This document shows positions 2,038-12,345 of a stretch of DNA of 64,000 nucleotides, in pieces. The stretch is from the IMG/VR virus record IMGVR_UViG_3300042890_004094. The stretch is one strand, 5' to 3'. The position numbers were made by a program, and so were the translations under genes. This DNA comes from a virus (Duplodnaviria > Heunggongvirae > Uroviricota > Caudoviricetes). The notes below the pieces were generated by a model. That model made no database searches, was not told where the DNA came from, and was given only the letters and a program-made list of their open reading frames with translations. Each line of letters starts with the position of its first letter. Positions within the stretch are counted from its first letter, which is position 1.

Positions 2038-2122
2038 AAGAGAGTAAGGGAATCGAACCCTACCCAGTTTCCCGGGCGTCTCGCTTAGCAGGCGGACCCT
2101 ATCACCATCAAGGTTTACTCTC
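2038..2122 (-). tRNA. tRNA-Ser(GCT), type II (long variable arm)
   Basis: Reverse complement GGAGAGT...GGGTTCGATTCCC...ACTCTCT; anticodon loop CTGCTAA; variable-arm hairpin CCCGG-GAAA-CTGGG. Confidence 0.7.
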
Positions 2123-2133
2123 CATATTTTGTA

Positions 2134-2216
2134 GTGAGCAAGGGAATCGAACCCTATACATCTAAACGTACGCACTGCTTTCCAGGCAGACCCTATCACC
2201 ATCAAGGATTACTCAC
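2134..2216 (-). tRNA. tRNA-Ser(GGA), type II
   Basis: D-arm identical to previous tRNA; anticodon loop CTGGAAA; T-arm GGGTTCGATTCCC. Confidence 0.6.
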
Positions 2217-2226
2217 TATGTTGTTG

Positions 2227-2313
2227 CGGAGAAAACAGGGCTCGAACCTGCACACCAGTTTCCCGATACCGGTTTTCAAGACCGGGGCGATACCAATTAC
2301 GCTTTACTTCTCC
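2227..2313 (-). tRNA. tRNA-Ser(TGA), type II
   Basis: Reverse complement GGAGAAG...CCGGT-CTTGAAA-ACCGG...GGTTCGAGCCC...TTTCTCC. Confidence 0.7.
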
Positions 2314-2324
2314 AAGTAATTTAG

Positions 2325-2408
2325 AAGAGAGTGTGGGACTCGAACCCACAAAGGTATTACCCTTTACTAGTTTTCAAAACTAGGCCTTCATCCAGCCAGT
2401 TACTCTCC
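2325..2408 (-). tRNA. tRNA-Ser(TGA) second copy, type II
   Basis: Reverse complement GGAGAGT...CTAGT-TTTGAAA-ACTAG...GGGTTCGAGTCCCAC...ACTCTCT. Confidence 0.6.
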
Positions 2409-2417
2409 ATATATTTG

Positions 2418-2489
2418 TGATTCCAGAGGGAATCGAACCCCCACCTGATCGTTCGTAGCGACCTATCCTATCCGTTAAACGATGGAACC
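2418..2489 (-). tRNA. tRNA-Arg(ACG)
   Basis: Reverse complement GGTTCCA...GGTCG-CTACGAA-CGATC...GGGGGTTCGATTCCC...TGGAATC. Confidence 0.7.
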
Positions 2490-2496
2490 AATTAAA

Positions 2497-2536
2497 AACA
2501 AAAAACCCACAAACTTTGAAGTCTGTGGGTTTCATA
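2497..2536. terminator. Hairpin with flanking T/A runs (factor-independent terminator candidate; minus-strand reading gives stem then TTTTTTGTTTTT)
   Basis: aacccacaaac-tttgaa-gtctgtgggtt preceded on the plus strand by aaaaacaaaaaa. Confidence 0.5.
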
Positions 2537-2553
2537 CTAATTTTTTATATCAA

Positions 2554-2631
2554 TTATGAACACAACAGAACCTCCCTCAAATTACTTGAGCGACTAGACG
2601 AACTTGACGATGTTGTGATAATTGTTTTCAT
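2554..2631 (-). CDS. Micro-ORF (25 aa, MKTIITTSSSSSSRSSNLREVLLCS) directly fused to the conserved promoter-like motif; may instead be a small RNA
   Basis: ATG immediately follows TTTTAATATATAAATAAT on the minus strand; terminated by the hairpin at 2497-2536; a related copy lies at 3695-3805. Confidence 0.25.
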   Translation of the reverse strand: MKTIITTSSSSSSRSSNLREVLLCS

Positions 2632-2636
2632 ATTAT

Positions 2637-2653
2637 TTATATATTAAAATTTT
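2637..2653 (-). promoter_or_regulatory. Conserved AT-rich promoter-like motif (minus-strand reading AAAATTTTAATATATAA)
   Basis: Member of a TTTTAATATATA family that recurs upstream of at least 10 genes in this window. Confidence 0.45.
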
Positions 2654-2675
2654 ATTCTTTGTTTTTATTTATTTG

Positions 2676-2809
2676 ATAGAAAGGTGGGACTCGAACCCAC
2701 AACCACGGCTTTAACAGAGCGAAGTAACTTATTTCATTGCTACTAAGAGTTTCTTAGAGAAAGACTGACTAAGTATGATTACGTGCTCTACCAATTGAGC
2801 TACTTTCTA
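2676..2809 (-). tRNA. tRNA-like gene interrupted by a ~58-nt insertion (possible intron); anticodon region reads TCATAC (possibly CAT)
   Basis: Canonical 5' half TAGAAAG-TA-GCTC-AATTGGTA-GAGC and canonical 3' half GTGGG-TTCGAGT-CCCAC-CTTTCTA form a perfect 7-bp acceptor, but are separated by about 58 extra nt; no 3' anticodon-stem partner found at the canonical place. Confidence 0.5.
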
Positions 2810-2813
2810 TTTG

Positions 2814-2884
2814 CACGTCGACTAGGGCTCGAACCTAGAACATTGGTTTTGGAGACCAAGATGATACCATTTCACTATCGACGT
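2814..2884 (-). tRNA. tRNA-Trp(CCA)
   Basis: Reverse complement ACGTCGA...TTGGT-CTCCAAA-ACCAA...CTAGGTTCGAGCCCTAG-TCGACGT. Confidence 0.7.
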
Positions 2885-2891
2885 GTTTTGG

Positions 2892-2965
2892 GTTGACAGA
2901 CGGGACTTGAACCCGCAATCCCTTGGTTCACAACCAAGTGCTTTAACCAATTAAGCTACCATCAA
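2892..2965 (-). tRNA. tRNA-His(GTG)
   Basis: Reverse complement TTGATGG...CTTGG-TTGTGAA-CCAAG...GCGGGTTCAAGTCCCGT-CTGTCAA, discriminator C. Confidence 0.65.
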
Positions 2966-2967
2966 AG

Positions 2968-3042
2968 TGACCCCGGTGAGACTCGAACTCACAACCCCCG
3001 CATTAAAAGTGCGGTGCTCTAAACCAATTGAGCTACGAAGTC
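2968..3042 (-). tRNA. tRNA-Lys(TTT)
   Basis: Reverse complement GACTTCG-TAGCTCAATTGG...CCGCA-CTTTTAA-TGCGG...GTGAGTTCGAGTCTCAC-CGGGGTC. Confidence 0.7.
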
Positions 3043-3052
3043 ATTATTATTG

Positions 3053-3124
3053 TGCGGACTGACGGAATCGAACCGACCTCTTAGGGACTTCACTCCTACG
3101 CTAAACCGTCTCAGCTAAATCCGC
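3053..3124 (-). tRNA. tRNA, anticodon uncertain (loop GTGAAGT, possibly GAA/Phe-like; imperfect stems)
   Basis: Reverse complement GCGGATT...GGTTCGATTCC...AGTCCGC has a perfect acceptor and T-loop; the anticodon stem has a mismatch. Confidence 0.5.
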
Positions 3125-3130
3125 AATTTT

Positions 3131-3205
3131 GGGTGAAAGACGGGGATCGAACCCGCGACAACTTGAACCACAATCAAGCACTCTACCACTGAGCTACAAT
3201 CACCA
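3131..3205 (-). tRNA. tRNA-His(GTG)-like second copy (G-1 and C73 present, two T-T mismatches in acceptor stem; possibly degenerate)
   Basis: Reverse complement G-GTGATTG-TAGCTCAGTGGTAGAG...CTTGA-TTGTGGT-TCAAG...GCGGGTTCGATCCCCGT-CTTTCAC-C. Confidence 0.5.
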
Positions 3206-3211
3206 TGTTTG

Positions 3212-3284
3212 TGGACCCTCAGGGAATCGAGCCCTGTCCTTTGGATTTTCAGTCCAACGTACGCACCAGCTATACGAAAGGTCC
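3212..3284 (-). tRNA. tRNA-Phe(GAA)
   Basis: Reverse complement GGACCTT...TTGGA-CTGAAAA-TCCAA...CAGGGCTCGATTCCCTG-AGGGTCC. Confidence 0.65.
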
Positions 3285-3294
3285 ATTATATTTG

Positions 3295-3367
3295 CACAAG
3301 CCAAGGGAGTCGAACCCTTTCCATCCGAGGTTTTGGAGACCTGGTGCATACCATTATGCTGACCTGT
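3295..3367 (-). tRNA. tRNA-Trp(CCA)-like second copy (one mismatched pair in anticodon stem)
   Basis: Reverse complement ACAGGTC...CAGGT-CTCCAAA-ACCTC...AAGGGTTCGACTCCCTT-GGCTTGT; D-loop AATGGTAT shared with the other Trp gene. Confidence 0.5.
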
Positions 3368-3376
3368 ATATATTTG

Positions 3377-3469
3377 AAGAAAGAAGAGTATCGAAACTCT
3401 TAGGGGATATCTCCACGACTAGCCTACCTCTCGGATTCGAACCGAGACCTCTTCAACCTGACTTTCTTT
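3377..3469 (-). tRNA. Aberrant 93-nt tRNA-like element (candidate Ser-CGA type II tRNA with unusually long variable region, or a tRNA remnant)
   Basis: Perfect 7-bp acceptor AAGAAAG/CTTTCTT; internal CTCGG-TTCGAAT-CCGAG stem-loop and a second T-arm-like AAGAG-TTTCGATA-CTCTT; does not fold canonically. Confidence 0.35.
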
Positions 3470-3471
3470 TG

Positions 3472-3544
3472 TGATCCCGGTGGGGCTCGAACCCACAACC
3501 TTCTGATTAAAAGTCAGAAGCTCCACCAATTGAGCTACGAAATC
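3472..3544 (-). tRNA. tRNA-Lys(TTT) second copy
   Basis: Reverse complement GATTTCG-TAGCTCAATTGGTGGAGC...TCTGA-CTTTTAA-TCAGA...GTGGGTTCGAGCCCCAC-CGGGATC. Confidence 0.65.
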
Positions 3545-3549
3545 ATTAG

Positions 3550-3622
3550 TTCCCCCGCCGGGAGTCGAACCCGGCCCCATAGGTTAAAAGCCTATTGCCT
3601 ACTACCAGTTTGCTACGAGGGA
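3550..3622 (-). tRNA. tRNA-Lys(TTT) third copy
   Basis: Reverse complement TCCCTCG...ATAGG-CTTTTAA-CCTAT...GGCCGGGTTCGACTCCCGGC-GGGGGA. Confidence 0.6.
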
Positions 3623-3631
3623 TTATAAAAT

Positions 3632-3670
3632 AAAAAAACCCGAACTTTTTTATAAGTTCGGGTTTACGTT
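3632..3670. terminator. Strong hairpin with flanking A/T runs (bidirectional factor-independent terminator candidate upstream of the tRNA array)
   Basis: aaaaaaacccgaacttttttataagttcgggtttacgttt. Confidence 0.6.
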
Positions 3671-3694
3671 TATGCTTTATTCTCTTTTATGACA

Positions 3695-3805
3695 TTATCC
3701 TATAATAACATCTTCTTTTGAGAACGACATACTCATACATCCGAACTTGTGGCTAAACCACTTGAACGACTTACTAAAGCTTGTATGTTTGAAATTTGTT
3801 CTCAT
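3695..3805 (-). CDS. Micro-ORF (36 aa, MRTNFKHTSFSKSFKWFSHKFGCMSMSFSKEDVIIG), a related copy of 2554..2631; may be a small RNA
   Basis: ATG fused to TTTTAATATATATAACA on the minus strand, followed by the 3632-3670 terminator. Confidence 0.25.
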   Translation of the reverse strand: MRTNFKHTSFSKSFKWFSHKFGCMSMSFSKEDVIIG

Positions 3806-3807
3806 TG

Positions 3808-3826
3808 TTATATATATTAAAAGTTT
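3808..3826 (-). promoter_or_regulatory. Conserved promoter-like motif (minus-strand AAACTTTTAATATATATAA)
   Basis: Same motif family as 2637-2653. Confidence 0.45.
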
Positions 3827-3895
3827 ATTCTCTCTTTTTGTTTTTTTGTTATTTTTATAGTACAAAAGTAATAAAAGTTTACTTATCTACCTAAT

Positions 3896-4090
3896 TTATT
3901 TTAATTTATTTTTAATTTTCTCTGCAATCTTCTCTAAACTTGATTTAGAAGTCTCTTTCTGTTTTGGAAATCTACCATGATTTCCCATACTATCATAGTC
4001 AGTACATTCATACGCACTAGGTGACGGTAGTCCACTATAGTGACAGAATTCTTCTTCACTAAGTATTTCTTTTTTATCTTCTTTTTTCAT
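3896..4090 (-). CDS. Hypothetical small protein (64 aa)
   Basis: ORF only; no recognisable motif. Confidence 0.35.
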   Translation of the reverse strand: MKKEDKKEILSEEEFCHYSGLPSPSAYECTDYDSMGNHGRFPKQKETSKSSLEKIAEKIKNKLK

Positions 4091-4140
4091 ACTATAAATA
4101 TACTACTTTATTTTATTCTACCAAACTTTAATACAAAAAA

Positions 4141-7100
4141 TTATCGTTTTAGTGTAAAATGTCCTTTATGTATTCTACCATCATTTCTGTAAGCAACGAA
4201 CCAGTAATCATTAGAAAATATCTGATTTCCATTGTAGGTTCCATCCCATCCTTGGCTAGTTGAATTAAATGATGTAATTATTTTACCATAACGATCATAA
4301 ATAATAACTTTAAAATCAGGTTCATTTTCAGAATCTTTAATTCTCCAATAATCATTATATCCATCATTATTGGGAGTAAAGAATTTGTCATAGTAAAGCA
4401 GCCAAATAACTTGACTAGTGATCCCACAATTAGCTTTATCTCTTACATAAACAGTGTATAATCCGGTAGTTAAATTATCAAAGTAGTTTTCATTTTGGTA
4501 TGTAACATTATCTAGAGAATATTCAAAGGTTCCATTACCAGATGTAATTACTGTAATAGTGTTTTCTCTAGCGGTCCAATCTGATATTTCAATACTTTCA
4601 ATAACTGGTGGTCCAGAAATGATTACATTAATACTCTGACTATTACTACAAGCCAATCCATTATAAGTATTTGTGGCGGTAACTGTTAGATTTGTTATAC
4701 CAATATCAGTAATACTAATAGATGGAGTTGTTTCACCATTAGACCAAATATAGGTAGTTGAAGACAAATTATTAGATGTAGCATCAATAATAGTAGGATT
4801 GGTTGTGCAATTCAAATAGTTTTGACTTAGATTCAAATTTGGTATTTTTCCCACAATTAAATTAAATGTTCTTAATTCATAGCAATTAGGTAAAGAGTTA
4901 AGTATAATTTTAGCATAAATAAGTTGTGGATTTATAGAAGGATTAAAACTTACTAAGTTTGTAATTTGATTAGTACCACTTTGTGCATCACTTAACGTAG
5001 TATAATAGGTTATAGTATAATTACTTACTATTTGTGTTCCTAGAATTACAGAATTCTGTTGTGATAAATTAAAAGTTTCATTATTAGTAATAATAGTTTT
5101 ACATTGAAGTAAATCACTAGGATTATTTATCAAAATAAAAGACTCAAGTATACTTACATCAAAAAATCGGTTAACTATATTACCACAATTATCTTCTATT
5201 TGAAAAAGGTAAATTGCTGGATCTAAATTAGAAAAAGTATTTGAAGTACCATTATCAAAAAAGAAAGGTAAACCATTTTTTTGTATAAGAGTATATGTCA
5301 ATGGTGCAGTTCCACTTGCCTCAACAAAAACATCTAAAGCACCGTTTGTAGAGCAAGGTAATCGATAAACATCAATAAATTCTAAAGATTCATTATAACT
5401 TAATGGTTCTAATATTTCAATACAATTTTTATCGGCATTATTTACGTCTGTAGAATTCCAGTCACTTCCATTTTGGAATGATAAAAAAGAACGAACAATT
5501 CGAAAATCGCCATTAGAACTAAAATTAAAATTGGTAGTATTGTTTATTAGGACAATTGAGTTATTTGTATTTGGAATAGTACCATCAGTATAAACTAGAT
5601 TTGTACTAGGATTTCCCCAAGTATTAGTAACCGGATCAATCAATTTTTGTAACCAAAAAGTTTCATTTGATGTTCCATTACTCACAAAGTCTAGTGCAAT
5701 ATCAAAAGAACCACAGTTAGGAACCAATGAAAAATTGGAAGAAGTGATTGTATAACCTTGTAAAATTATGTTAGTAGTATTAGTTAAGTTACATTCATCA
5801 GTTCCAATAAAAGTATAATTTCCTGCAGGAAGATTATTCATATAAAAAATACCATCAGGTGCAATGTTATAAGACACATTTAATGGAAGATTAAAATTAA
5901 ACGTACTAGGAGCTGCTGTAATAATAATAGATGTCAATTTTGAATTCAAACTTTCAATTTTAACTGCACTAGTATTCAAGTCACAACCATTTCTTATAGA
6001 ATTAGATAAACCTTTATCTACATAGGCAGGAACAACAACTGTAATAGGTGTTAAAATATCATTACAAGTATTTGTTAATTCAATTATATAATTTCCTAAC
6101 GGAACTGGATTTAATATAATTGTACCATTATTAATTAAAGAGGTTATATTATGTGGTAAAGTGAAAGGATAATCAGATGGTGCAGAGGTTACTAATCCAG
6201 TTGTGATAATATATCCGGGTATGCTTATATTTATCTTTCCTGTTGTAGTCAGACATCCATTGTGTGATCCTGTTACACTTGGAATAGGTGGTCGATTTAT
6301 TATCGTAAAAGAAATATTTTTAGTATTACCACAAGAATCTGTAATAGTAGCATCATAAGTTCCTATGGGTGTAGGTAATGTTGTATTTCCAAAAGACACA
6401 CTGTTTTGATTATAGGGACCTGGATAGGAGTCATTAAAAACTAGAGGATTAAAACCAGTTGGAAAAGAATTAAAGTTTATAGTATAAGGAGGATAAAAAT
6501 TTGAAAGATTAAATGTAAAAAAGTTTTTGTTACAATCTAAACGGGTTGTAGTGTTGGTTAGGTTTATTCCATTGTTTACAACAAAATTTGTTGAAGAATA
6601 GGTTGAATTACATGCATCAGTAATAGATATTGAGTAACTAAAAGTTTGATTAATGTAATTTGTCATGTTTTGTACCAAATTTTGTTGTGTTAAACCTCCA
6701 GAATTTAAAGTACTATTCAATATAATTGGTACACCTCCAGGTGGTAAAATAGTGTAAGTAATGTTTAACGGATAACCAATAACAGTTCCAGTTGCAGCAG
6801 TTAAGGTATTAGTAACTGAAACTAAGTTACAATTAGATAATTGAGTAATTTGAGGTTGTCCAATTGTAATACCAGTTGTGTTTTGAACGGTTGTAAAAGT
6901 TGTTACAACTCCAATTCCACAATTATCAAAAACTCTAATCTTATAAACACCGATAGGTAAATTAGAAAAAGTATTGGAACTCTGTGATGGAAACAATAAA
7001 GGTCCATTAAATATTTCATAAGAAGCAGGTGTTCCGGTCAGTGTATTTACAGTAATTGTACTTGTGTTAGAACATGCTTGATTTAAAGTTTGAATGTTAT

Positions 7101-11910: not shown

Positions 11911-11921
11911 AAACTATATAT
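11908..11921 (-). promoter_or_regulatory. Conserved motif (minus-strand ATATATAGTTTATG) fused to the start codon; contains the TAG stop of smpB
   Basis: Reverse complement of cataaactatatat. Confidence 0.45.
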
Positions 11922-12345
11922 TTCGTTGCATCTCTCTAGTAAGGTCTCTTTCTTTGATAGTTTCACGTTTATCCCAAGTTTTCTTACCTTTGGCAACAGC
12001 TATTTTAATTTTAATTCTATTATTCTTAATAAACATACCAAGTGGAATTGCAGTTATGCCTTTATCTTCCAGTTTTCTTTTGATACGAGTGATTTCTTTT
12101 TTATTTAAAAGAAGTTTCTTATCACGATTTTCTTCGTGTTTATCTAAAGTATGTGCTGATTTATAAGCTGCAACTTTTAGATTTTTAATCCACACTTCAT
12201 TATCTTTTATGTAAATGAACGCATCAACCATGGTAACATTTCCCATTCTAACGGACTTTACTTCACTACCAACCAATATTATTCCGCAGTCAAATTCCTC
12301 TATAAAAGTATATTCGTAACGGGCTCTTCTATTTAATGCTATCAT
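11914..12345 (-). CDS. smpB: SsrA-binding protein SmpB
   Basis: 143 aa; ALNRRARYEY...GSEVKS...IAVAKGKK..DKR..IKERD pattern aligns with bacterial SmpB. Confidence 0.85.
   Translation of the reverse strand: MIALNRRARYEYTFIEEFDCGIILVGSEVKSVRMGNVTMVDAFIYIKDNEVWIKNLKVAAYKSAHTLDKHEENRDKKLLLNKKEITRIKRKLEDKGITAIPLGMFIKNNRIKIKIAVAKGKKTWDKRETIKERDLTREMQRNI

Follow-up and report, generated by a model that had tools for sequence, protein, structure and literature searches.

The tRNA genes of phages are generally taken to be simple and free of interruptions. One tRNA gene on the minus strand of the 64,000-nucleotide stretch of viral DNA analysed here (the whole of which we call the window) is split by sequence unrelated to tRNA, and the question is what tRNA it encodes, what the intervening sequence is, and whether a working tRNA could be obtained from it. 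A sequence-only reading of the window had located this gene and its insert at positions 2676-2809, and these coordinates are right. We find that 2809..2676 (-) is a genuine tRNA-Asn(GUU) gene carrying a 61-nt insert between nucleotides 28 and 29, within the anticodon stem.

The window carries a tRNA-Asn(GUU) gene interrupted in its anticodon stem

In a search of a 401-nt segment, the Rfam tRNA model RF00005 aligned end to end with 2809..2676 (-) (model positions 1-71; 44.6 bits, the gathering score being 29; E = 2e-8), and an insertion state of 74 nt took the place of the central anticodon arm. The parts of the gene are the following.

2676..2809 (-): whole interrupted tRNA-Asn(GUU) gene, 134 nt, recovered by the RF00005 match and by a structural scan
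2782..2809 (-): 5' part, tRNA nucleotides 1-28, from the acceptor 5' strand to C27 G28
2809..2803 (-): acceptor 5' strand, followed by U8 A9
2800..2785 (-): D arm, followed by A26 and by C27 G28, the first two anticodon-stem bases
2721..2781 (-): 61-nt intervening sequence UAAUCAUACUUAGUCAGUCUUUCUCUAAGAAACUCUUAGUAGCAAUGAAAUAAGUUACUUC, between nucleotides 28 and 29
2743..2757 (-): hairpin CUAAGA-AAC-UCUUAG within the insert, ending 1 nt before the motif
2736..2742 (-): UAGCAAU, the window version of the family motif ACNGCAA(U) described below
2676..2720 (-): 3' part, tRNA nucleotides 29-73, beginning G29 C30 U31
2717..2711 (-): anticodon loop CUGUUAA, with the anticodon GUU at 2715..2713
2700..2684 (-): T arm, preceded by AGCCG and the variable loop UGGUU
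2683..2677 (-): acceptor 3' strand, with U73 at 2676
Junction after in-silico removal of the insert: ...GAGCACG/GCUCUGUUAA (here and below, a slash after GAGCACG marks the insertion site)

Read 5' to 3', the RNA runs from ...GAGC through A, C27 and G28 into the insert (UAAUCAUAC...GUUACUUC), and then through G29 C30 U31, CUGUUAA, AGCCG and UGGUU to the T arm; the 5' strand of the anticodon stem is split, with C27 G28 before the insert and G29 C30 U31 after it. Outside the anticodon arm, the description given by the sequence-only reading stands: the acceptor stem UAGAAAG/CUUUCUA pairs perfectly at 7/7 positions, the T arm GUGGG-UUCGAGU-CCCAC is canonical, and so is the D arm, GCUC-AAUUGGUA-GAGC. 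Within that arm it has to be revised. The reading took TCATAC as the start of the anticodon arm, with the anticodon CAU inside it, put the insert at about 58 nt, and saw no 3' partner for the anticodon stem. The loop CUGUUAA and the strand AGCCG instead lie downstream of the insert, which measures 61 nt (2781..2721). With the insert at 28/29, AGCCG becomes the missing partner, and the anticodon reads GUU.

The anticodon stem and its 7-nt loop are not contiguous in the gene and become so only once 2781..2721 is removed. This excision joins CG to GCU and yields the 5-bp stem CGGCU/AGCCG with a 7-nt loop, U33 and A37; no other excision gives 5/5 stem pairs together with a 7-nt loop, and the junction cannot slide. 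From the insert-free sequence ARAGORN calls a canonical tRNA-Asn(GUU), in which all four stems are perfect and the conserved tRNA positions are intact. A tRNA-Met(CAU) with an intron after position 37, as reproduced by ARAGORN -i, forms only 2/5 stem pairs. The gene does not encode CCA, and its discriminator base is U73. In default mode ARAGORN does not call the interrupted gene, and Rfam searches of 2.3 kb or 64 kb do not return it, because speed filters drop the gene on longer input.

The interrupted gene is the last of a sub-cluster in a minus-strand tRNA array, for which ARAGORN predicts 13 genes (2131-3622) and Rfam adds one (2039-2122). There is no second tRNA-Asn in this array of 13-14 normal tRNA genes, and a structural scan of both strands of the window found no other tRNA-like gene of 95-199 nt. 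Asparagine is the commonest amino acid encoded by the window ORFs (8.9% of codons, with AAT the top codon), and the G+C content is ~28%. Products recognised in a Pfam scan include TyrRS, YqeY, SmpB, a nucleotidyltransferase, a sigma-70 factor and an NAD-dependent DNA ligase, along with an S1-domain protein, SIR2, DnaJ and a large protein with a type IX secretion sorting domain. From this gene content the window looks like a huge phage of Bacteroidota; the sigma-70 factor, SmpB, the NAD-dependent DNA ligase and the type IX sorting domain point in that direction, and away from the large eukaryotic viruses that the sequence-only reading had brought in for comparison. A megablast search matched the tRNA array to no cultured phage, and the window has no close relative among them.

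Known intron classes and tRNA-like RNAs do not explain the insert

That the insert interrupts a tRNA gene in its anticodon arm is the sole point in favour of a classical intron, whether of the self-splicing group I type or of the archaeal/eukaryal bulge-helix-bulge type that a splicing endonuclease cuts. Group I introns are about 200 nt or more in length, so that 61 nt is far too short, and the insertion lies in the stem at 28/29, not in the anticodon loop. The search of the 401-nt segment returned no group I intron (no RF00028 core) or other ribozyme from Rfam at E ≤ 10. A group I intron, one of the checks proposed in the sequence-only reading, is therefore excluded by the length of the insert and the lack of any Rfam intron or ribozyme match. 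The other proposed check, for a bulge-helix-bulge, also came out negative: in the window the central helix pairs at 3/4 positions and the flanking helices at 2/3 each, and the full motif can be drawn in 0/24 related genes (described below). No tRNA-splicing endonuclease was annotated by Pfam among the window ORFs of at least ~130 aa across the 64 kb. We regard a classical intron as extremely unlikely.

Bacterial group I introns (in Leu-UAA, fMet, Ile and Arg genes, and in Asn/Asp genes of Patescibacteria, PMC13011429) also interrupt the anticodon region of tRNA genes, and such genes are likewise missed by annotation tools. These introns differ in being catalytic, a few hundred nucleotides long, sited in the anticodon loop and recognised by RF00028; the window insert has none of these properties. 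Archaeal non-canonical bulge-helix-bulge introns can likewise lie outside 37/38, stems included, but they need a bulge-helix-bulge and EndA, and the motif is absent from both the window gene and the family.

Several other structured RNAs were considered and rejected. A clean type-II tRNA fold, which the sequence-only reading had named as the competing possibility, is absent: there is no extra arm at 44-48, the variable region (UGGUU) has an ordinary 5 nt, and the insert is on the 5' side of the anticodon loop. The presence of an SmpB gene at 11914-12345 and of GCA AUG AAA UAA inside the insert prompted the idea of a tmRNA. The gene has the pair G3:C70, not G3:U70, and a canonical D arm; ARAGORN reports no tmRNA, the Rfam tmRNA model matches the T arm only (13 bits), and a mini-tmRNA tag frame read from GCA meets no stop in the relatives L010 or L025. 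Y RNA topology does not fit either, since the gene ends in an acceptor stem, not a Ro-binding stem, and has no Ro60-like gene within the 64 kb. Hammerhead, twister, pistol, hatchet and HDV-like cores were rejected by eye and by the lack of an Rfam match at E ≤ 10.

Inserts with a hairpin and an ACNGCAA motif recur in phage tRNA genes

In public viral and genome contigs, scans uncovered hundreds of phage tRNA genes with inserts of this kind. A first scan of viral contigs, in which the D arm and T arm were fixed and 50-80 extra bases allowed between them, recovered the same design in unrelated contigs: ...GAGCACG/UA(U/A)..., a hairpin, ACAGCAAU and a U/A-rich tail, followed by the three bases that complete the anticodon stem. 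The inserts share a layout composed of a short A/U-rich lead starting with UA, a hairpin, the motif ACNGCAA and an A/U-rich tail. In all 24 distinct genes of the 28/29 class, excision restores 5/5 stem pairs and ARAGORN then calls a tRNA, with Lys, Asn, Thr, Pro, Arg, Gly and Leu among the isotypes; two genes with 8-nt loops were not assigned an isotype.

A scan combining the motif with a T arm identified more than 120 viral loci among the matches listed, with 137 distinct genes, and several loci carry 2-4 interrupted tRNA genes. The element also occurs within the anticodon loop (Gly-like genes) and beside the D arm (Cys-like genes), always 5' of the anticodon. Genome assemblies of gut Clostridia also contain family members, as does one isolate, Oscillospiraceae bacterium 50-58, which carries the L010/L064 operon. 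A match in Yersinia phage fHe-Yen9-04 (L091) has weak acceptor pairing and is unannotated. Rfam holds no family for the insert, and locus L010 yields tRNA matches only.

The hairpin is a consistent part of the element. A stem of at least 7 bp ending no more than 4 nt from the motif is present in 57% of 112 genes compared to 6% of shuffles, a count free of selection bias. When 43 diverse hairpins, from genes selected because they have one, were aligned, all 7 pairs covaried, with a score of 0.92 vs. 0.25 for shuffles and at most 0.20 for slid registers. Pairing of ACAGCAAU with the D-loop or the exons, and a pseudoknot between hairpin loop and tail, could be drawn only for single sequences (L003, L025, L005), with no conservation. 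Family-wide conservation is limited to the hairpin and a 7-8-nt single-stranded motif, which is the pattern of a protein-binding site. The family is common in phages and apparently unnamed, and may represent an undescribed kind of tRNA interruption.

Interrupted tRNA genes usually lie beside a gene for a Ro60-like protein

Clustering of ORFs around the interrupted genes revealed a protein of ~500 aa with a DUF2828 domain in 63 of 97 loci, always encoded on the same strand and at a median distance of 249 nt, the interrupted tRNA genes usually lying just upstream. The protein combines Pfam DUF2828 with DUF7788 (vWA) and corresponds to PHROG 850, "RNA-binding protein". The association also holds when approached from the protein side: of 76 viral loci, 69 carry long tRNA-like genes in the 2.5 kb upstream. 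Long tRNA genes upstream of DUF2828 number 185, against 63 of normal length, and ACNGCAA is found in 157 of the 185. In 8 loci there is a gene for a PNK-like kinase joined to an HD domain.

Searching PDB sequences with a DUF2828 profile gave no Ro60 match. When an AlphaFold model of the protein (pLDDT 74) was compared with PDB structures, the top seven matches were all Ro60/TROVE proteins, aligned over the full length with E-values from 4e-8 to 1e-4, including those of Thermus phage phiLo, D. radiodurans Rsr, Xenopus Ro60 and human Ro60. The predicted structure therefore shows a Ro60 fold (TROVE plus vWA). This kinship is visible by fold search only, not by sequence.

DUF2828 is present in 706 cultured phage records, and in mycobacteriophages it is annotated as "Ro-like RNA binding protein". 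One mycobacteriophage has a YrlA-like match directly downstream of its DUF2828 gene, a layout that fits Chen et al. 2014 (PMC4201824), and Ro60-like genes with adjacent tRNA-like Y RNAs are already known in phages (PMC4201824, PMC12135203, PMC7824862). By analogy, an interrupted tRNA array beside DUF2828 can be viewed as the same layout as a Y RNA gene beside Ro60. The resemblance to the Ro60/YrlA system (RF02553; PMC4201824; phiLo, PMC12135203) extends to the RNA, in which a putative protein-binding module is combined with tRNA-like D and T arms and an acceptor stem, and to the neighbouring TROVE plus vWA gene on the same strand, for which DUF2828 would be the Ro-like partner in phages. YrlA differs in being circularly permuted, in ending in a Ro-binding stem, and in having no anticodon arm and the motif GNCGAAN0-1G, whereas the family RNAs are complete tRNAs with real anticodon loops and the ACNGCAA module. 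The window copy is further removed from YrlA: it has no Ro-like gene nearby, and the YrlA model (RF02553) reaches only 17.9 bits against a gathering score of 69, over nothing but the tRNA arms of two neighbouring genes.

The window insert as a probable divergent copy of the family

Whether the window insert belongs to this family has to be judged from its position, motif and hairpin, and from these we think it fairly probable that it is a divergent orphan copy. The insertion site at 28/29 and the junction GAGCACG/UA are identical to those of 23 of the 24 class members. The motif region of the window copy, GUAGCAAU, includes GUAGCAA, which agrees with ACNGCAA at 5/7 positions; the well-conserved AC is replaced by GU, and other members are also found without the leading AC (GCAGCAA, UCAGCAA, AGAGCAA). 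The window hairpin has 6 bp and stops 1 nt short of the motif. In a search blind to the motif, five Asn tRNAs were recovered with a 28/29 insert starting UAAU: all five have a family-type motif, in three distinct sequences (ACAGCAAC, ACAACAAC and ACUGCAAG), and all five have a DUF2828 gene.

The insert could instead be specific to its lineage, an independent intervening sequence unrelated to the DUF2828-linked family, in which AGCAAU and the hairpin are coincidental. The family covariance model fails on the window copy: R1, which describes the hairpin and motif and was built without the window lineage, did not report the insert in a filter-free search of the window at E ≤ 10, and in a local search it aligned AGCAAU alone (5.4 bits, E = 0.15). 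The motif deviates at two conserved positions, and at 61 nt the insert is longer than the 42-55 nt of most family members. The Asn members of the family that were examined have G73, as opposed to U73 in the window copy. No DUF2828, TROVE, RtcB or RNA-ligase gene was found in the 64-kb window or in the flanks of its relatives (up to 12.6 kb of each contig, out of 105-132 kb). Such coincidence would nevertheless have to produce a site and 5' junction identical to those of the family, an AGCAAU whose chance of occurring in 61 AT-rich nt is ~0.02, and a motif-adjacent hairpin conserved through four indel variants, and all five Asn examples from the motif-blind search at 28/29 are family members. 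We consider a lineage-specific origin quite unlikely.

The four hairpin variants come from close relatives of the window gene. Near-identical copies exist in environmental contigs (L036 = L218, L043 = L208, L207, L214), and L216 is a more divergent copy; contigs of this phage lineage include Ga0209084_1000032, Ga0209191_1000038 and ERZ795062 NODE-3656. What differs among these genes is the loop of the hairpin that precedes UAGCAAU, altered by indels or substitutions; the stem CUAA/UUAG is kept in the window, L036, L043 and L216, with loops AAC, AACUC, GAAA and CAACU. L216 also has one substitution in the 5' lead of the insert, upstream of the hairpin, and its pair -1:73 is changed from A:U to G:C, with every stem kept. 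In L036 and L043 the flanking spacer is as conserved as the gene, and because near-identity extends over the whole region, spacer included, these copies say little about selection. Exact junction searches of viral contigs and JGI metagenome contigs yielded no insert-free or spliced allele, and among the collected loci the search for insert-free versions returned ordinary homologous tRNAs only, with 88-90% identity.

These relatives also bear on whether the insertion has inactivated the gene, leaving a dead tRNA gene in which decay is yet to come. Its U73 is unusual for tRNA-Asn (E. coli tRNA-Asn has G73), the motif is degenerate, the gene for a partner protein is not nearby, and the relatives are too similar to reveal selection, all of which is compatible with a dead gene. 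Against this, the four stems are perfect and the conserved tRNA positions intact, L216 swaps the pair -1:73 without losing a stem, and indels in the insert preserve the hairpin. A dead gene seems to us very unlikely.

Possible fate of the insert

The reading that we favour, to which we give about an even chance, is that of a real tRNA-Asn(GUU) with an orphan family insert that is Y-RNA-like, recognised by a protein and destined to be cut out. The insert is too small for a group I or group II intron and matches no small ribozyme, and protein-dependent removal is therefore favoured. We infer that a Ro60-like protein binds the insert and that the insert is removed. The precursor would fold as a cloverleaf from whose anticodon stem the insert loops out, and the hairpin and motif would form, not a ribozyme, but a protein-recognition module akin to the Ro-binding part of a Y RNA, which the Ro60-like protein would recognise. 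Proteins would then remove the insert by endonucleolytic cuts in its single-stranded A/U-rich flanks, followed by trimming. The resulting nick at 28/29 may be sealed or tolerated, with the anticodon stem holding both parts in register, and the product would be a decoding tRNA-Asn for a genome in which asparagine is the commonest amino acid.

A partial precedent is offered by the intervening sequences of bacterial rRNA, which are excised by RNase III without re-ligation. They too are extra elements that loop out from a helix in a stable RNA, and after excision of this type base pairing could keep a nicked molecule together and functional. They differ in having long double-stranded RNase III stems, as opposed to the single-stranded A/U-rich flanks and short hairpin of the window insert.

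A broader proposal, which we hold to be doubtful, is that hairpin-ACNGCAA inserts as a whole constitute a new tRNA intron class whose removal is organised by a DUF2828 RNP, the partner gene of the window copy being located elsewhere. If true, bacteria and phages would gain their first example of a tRNA splicing system that is not self-splicing, and thousands of gut and environmental phages would license or protect their own tRNAs in this way.

The main rival to removal is that the RNA works unspliced and does not decode, as a Y-RNA-like RNP scaffold or tRNA mimic, a role that we judge unlikely. The tRNA body might then attract tRNA-binding enzymes, for instance host anticodon nucleases or modification enzymes, with the insert binding the Ro60-like protein. 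We know of no protein-dependent tRNA splicing, or machinery for it, in bacteria or phages, and some family members would have odd anticodon loops if excised, of 8 or 9 nt (L010, L042, L033, L058, L066) or, in part of the loop-inserted class, without U33. The family layout also mirrors that of Ro60 and its Y RNAs, which are stable RNAs that undergo no splicing (PMC4201824, PMC12135203). In most members the loop is nonetheless canonical, with 7 nt, U33 and a purine at position 37, and their anticodons are typical of phage tRNA sets. The near-identical genes of L032 and L037 switch the anticodon only (UCU vs. GUU), and in L010 five of the six tRNAs of the array upstream of the DUF2828 gene are interrupted, so that they look like the working set of the phage. 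The window copy itself is the only tRNA-Asn in an Asn-rich genome and has no Ro60-like gene near it, which argues further for a decoding tRNA over an unspliced scaffold.

Novelty and significance

Inserts in phage tRNA genes are not without precedent. The "enigmatic" tRNA introns of Lak megaphages (Devoto et al. 2019, PMC6784885) also lie in tRNA genes of huge Bacteroidota phages, lack an Rfam class and a known mechanism, and show high conservation among relatives. They are located in the anticodon loop at ~37/38, measure ~75-114 nt, start with UACA or UAACA and a hairpin, and contain a T-arm-like mini-tRNA (PMC6784885, Supplementary Table 6), whereas the window insert lies in the stem at 28/29, has 61 nt, and carries a hairpin and AGCAAU with no T-arm-like element. 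Lak-type inserts and phage Ro60/Y RNA systems are thus already known, and position, size and content set the Lak inserts apart. We found no description of complete tRNA genes with the hairpin-ACNGCAA module or the DUF2828 link in Rfam 15 and the full-text literature, which mostly leaves out subscription journals, so that an earlier description is possible. Inserts in the stem of phage tRNA genes were likewise not described in the full-text literature, whose coverage of subscription journals is thin.

For phage genomics, ARAGORN and Rfam with default filters miss or misread interrupted genes, the only tRNA-Asn of the window being an example, and phage tRNA repertoires are therefore under-counted. 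If the insert is excised, these genes would reveal a tRNA processing pathway not known in bacteria, and would give the Ro60-like (DUF2828) proteins, very abundant in phages and encoded in more than 700 cultured phage genomes, a concrete substrate. If it is not excised, they would represent Y RNAs of a new kind, with complete tRNAs as their framework, and would bear on how phages counter tRNA-targeting defences.

Operon context of the interrupted tRNA genes

Across loci L005-L300, the other contigs and genomes compared with the window, two to six interrupted tRNA genes form operons directly upstream of a gene for the Ro60-like protein DUF2828. These operons are very common among gut and environmental viral contigs. 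One example is:

L010:6054-8848, operon of interrupted tRNA genes and DUF2828

The protein itself has at least 8000 database relatives, and 706 records of cultured phages contain it. Felix-O1-like phages have their tRNA array directly downstream of the DUF2828 gene, as in Escherichia phage GEP101 (Felixounavirus; L301, 2959-5964). Rfam detected at least two tRNAs there that are absent from the GEP101 annotation (4956-5029 and 5814-5887), and no interrupted tRNA was seen across 2959-5964.

Detection of interrupted tRNA genes

The interrupted tRNA-Asn gene of the window (2676-2809) was reported neither by Rfam in gathering mode on the 64 kb nor in E-value mode on 2.3 kb, and was recovered only by a 401-nt search. 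Its score (44.6 bits) nevertheless lies above the threshold of 29. Default filters thus systematically lose interrupted tRNA genes.

A putative attenuator and other features of the window

Analysis of the gap that separates the interrupted tRNA-Asn from the tRNA genes following it revealed a 25-codon ORF, MKTIITTSSSSSSRSSNLREVLLCS, which includes a run of eight Ser codons and one Arg codon, followed by an intrinsic terminator.

2631..2497, minus strand, putative leader/attenuator region (ORF, terminator and folding)
2533..2504, minus strand, 14-bp intrinsic terminator, 3' of the ORF

The region has a folding z of -3.98 and shows sub-threshold Rfam matches to His and Thr leaders. The same arrangement is kept in the near-identical relatives L036 and L043. 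Because the Ser/Arg codon run corresponds to the genes immediately downstream on the minus strand (tRNA-Arg-ACG, then three or four tRNA-Ser), the region looks like a leader-peptide attenuator controlling these tRNA genes.

In the tRNA-Asn gene itself, A-1 (2810) pairs with discriminator U73 (2676), and both positions are changed jointly in the more divergent relative L216, yielding G-1:C73, an arrangement typical of tRNA-His. Neither U73 nor C73 is the typical discriminator of tRNA-Asn.

In the window tRNA array, the His, Phe, Trp and Lys genes are duplicated, and a tRNA-like gene that adjoins three tRNA-Ser genes received no ARAGORN call. Despite a phage-encoded SmpB, located near TyrRS and YqeY genes, no tmRNA gene was detected across the whole 64 kb.

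2039-2122, minus strand, 84-nt tRNA-like gene (Rfam scores: tRNA, 35 bits; tRNA-Sec, 40 bits)
11914-12345, minus strand, SmpB

Anticodon loops and anticodon switching

In silico insert removal left some family members (L010:6754-6871, L042, L033, L058 and L066) with odd anticodon loops, either of 8 nt (CUUUUUAA, CUGGUUAA, AUUUCGGA) or, in one case, of 9 nt (AUUGUAGGA). In a loop-inserted, Gly-like class, AA instead of YU precedes the anticodon. Either junctions are placed differently in these odd-loop and AA members, or their RNAs are non-ordinary decoders. Elsewhere in the family, exons and insert are identical between L032/L047, with loop CUUCUAA (Arg-UCU), and L037/L045/L046/L053, with loop CUGUUAA (Asn-GUU). 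These genes differ in the anticodon alone, which points to recent switches of anticodon among family members.
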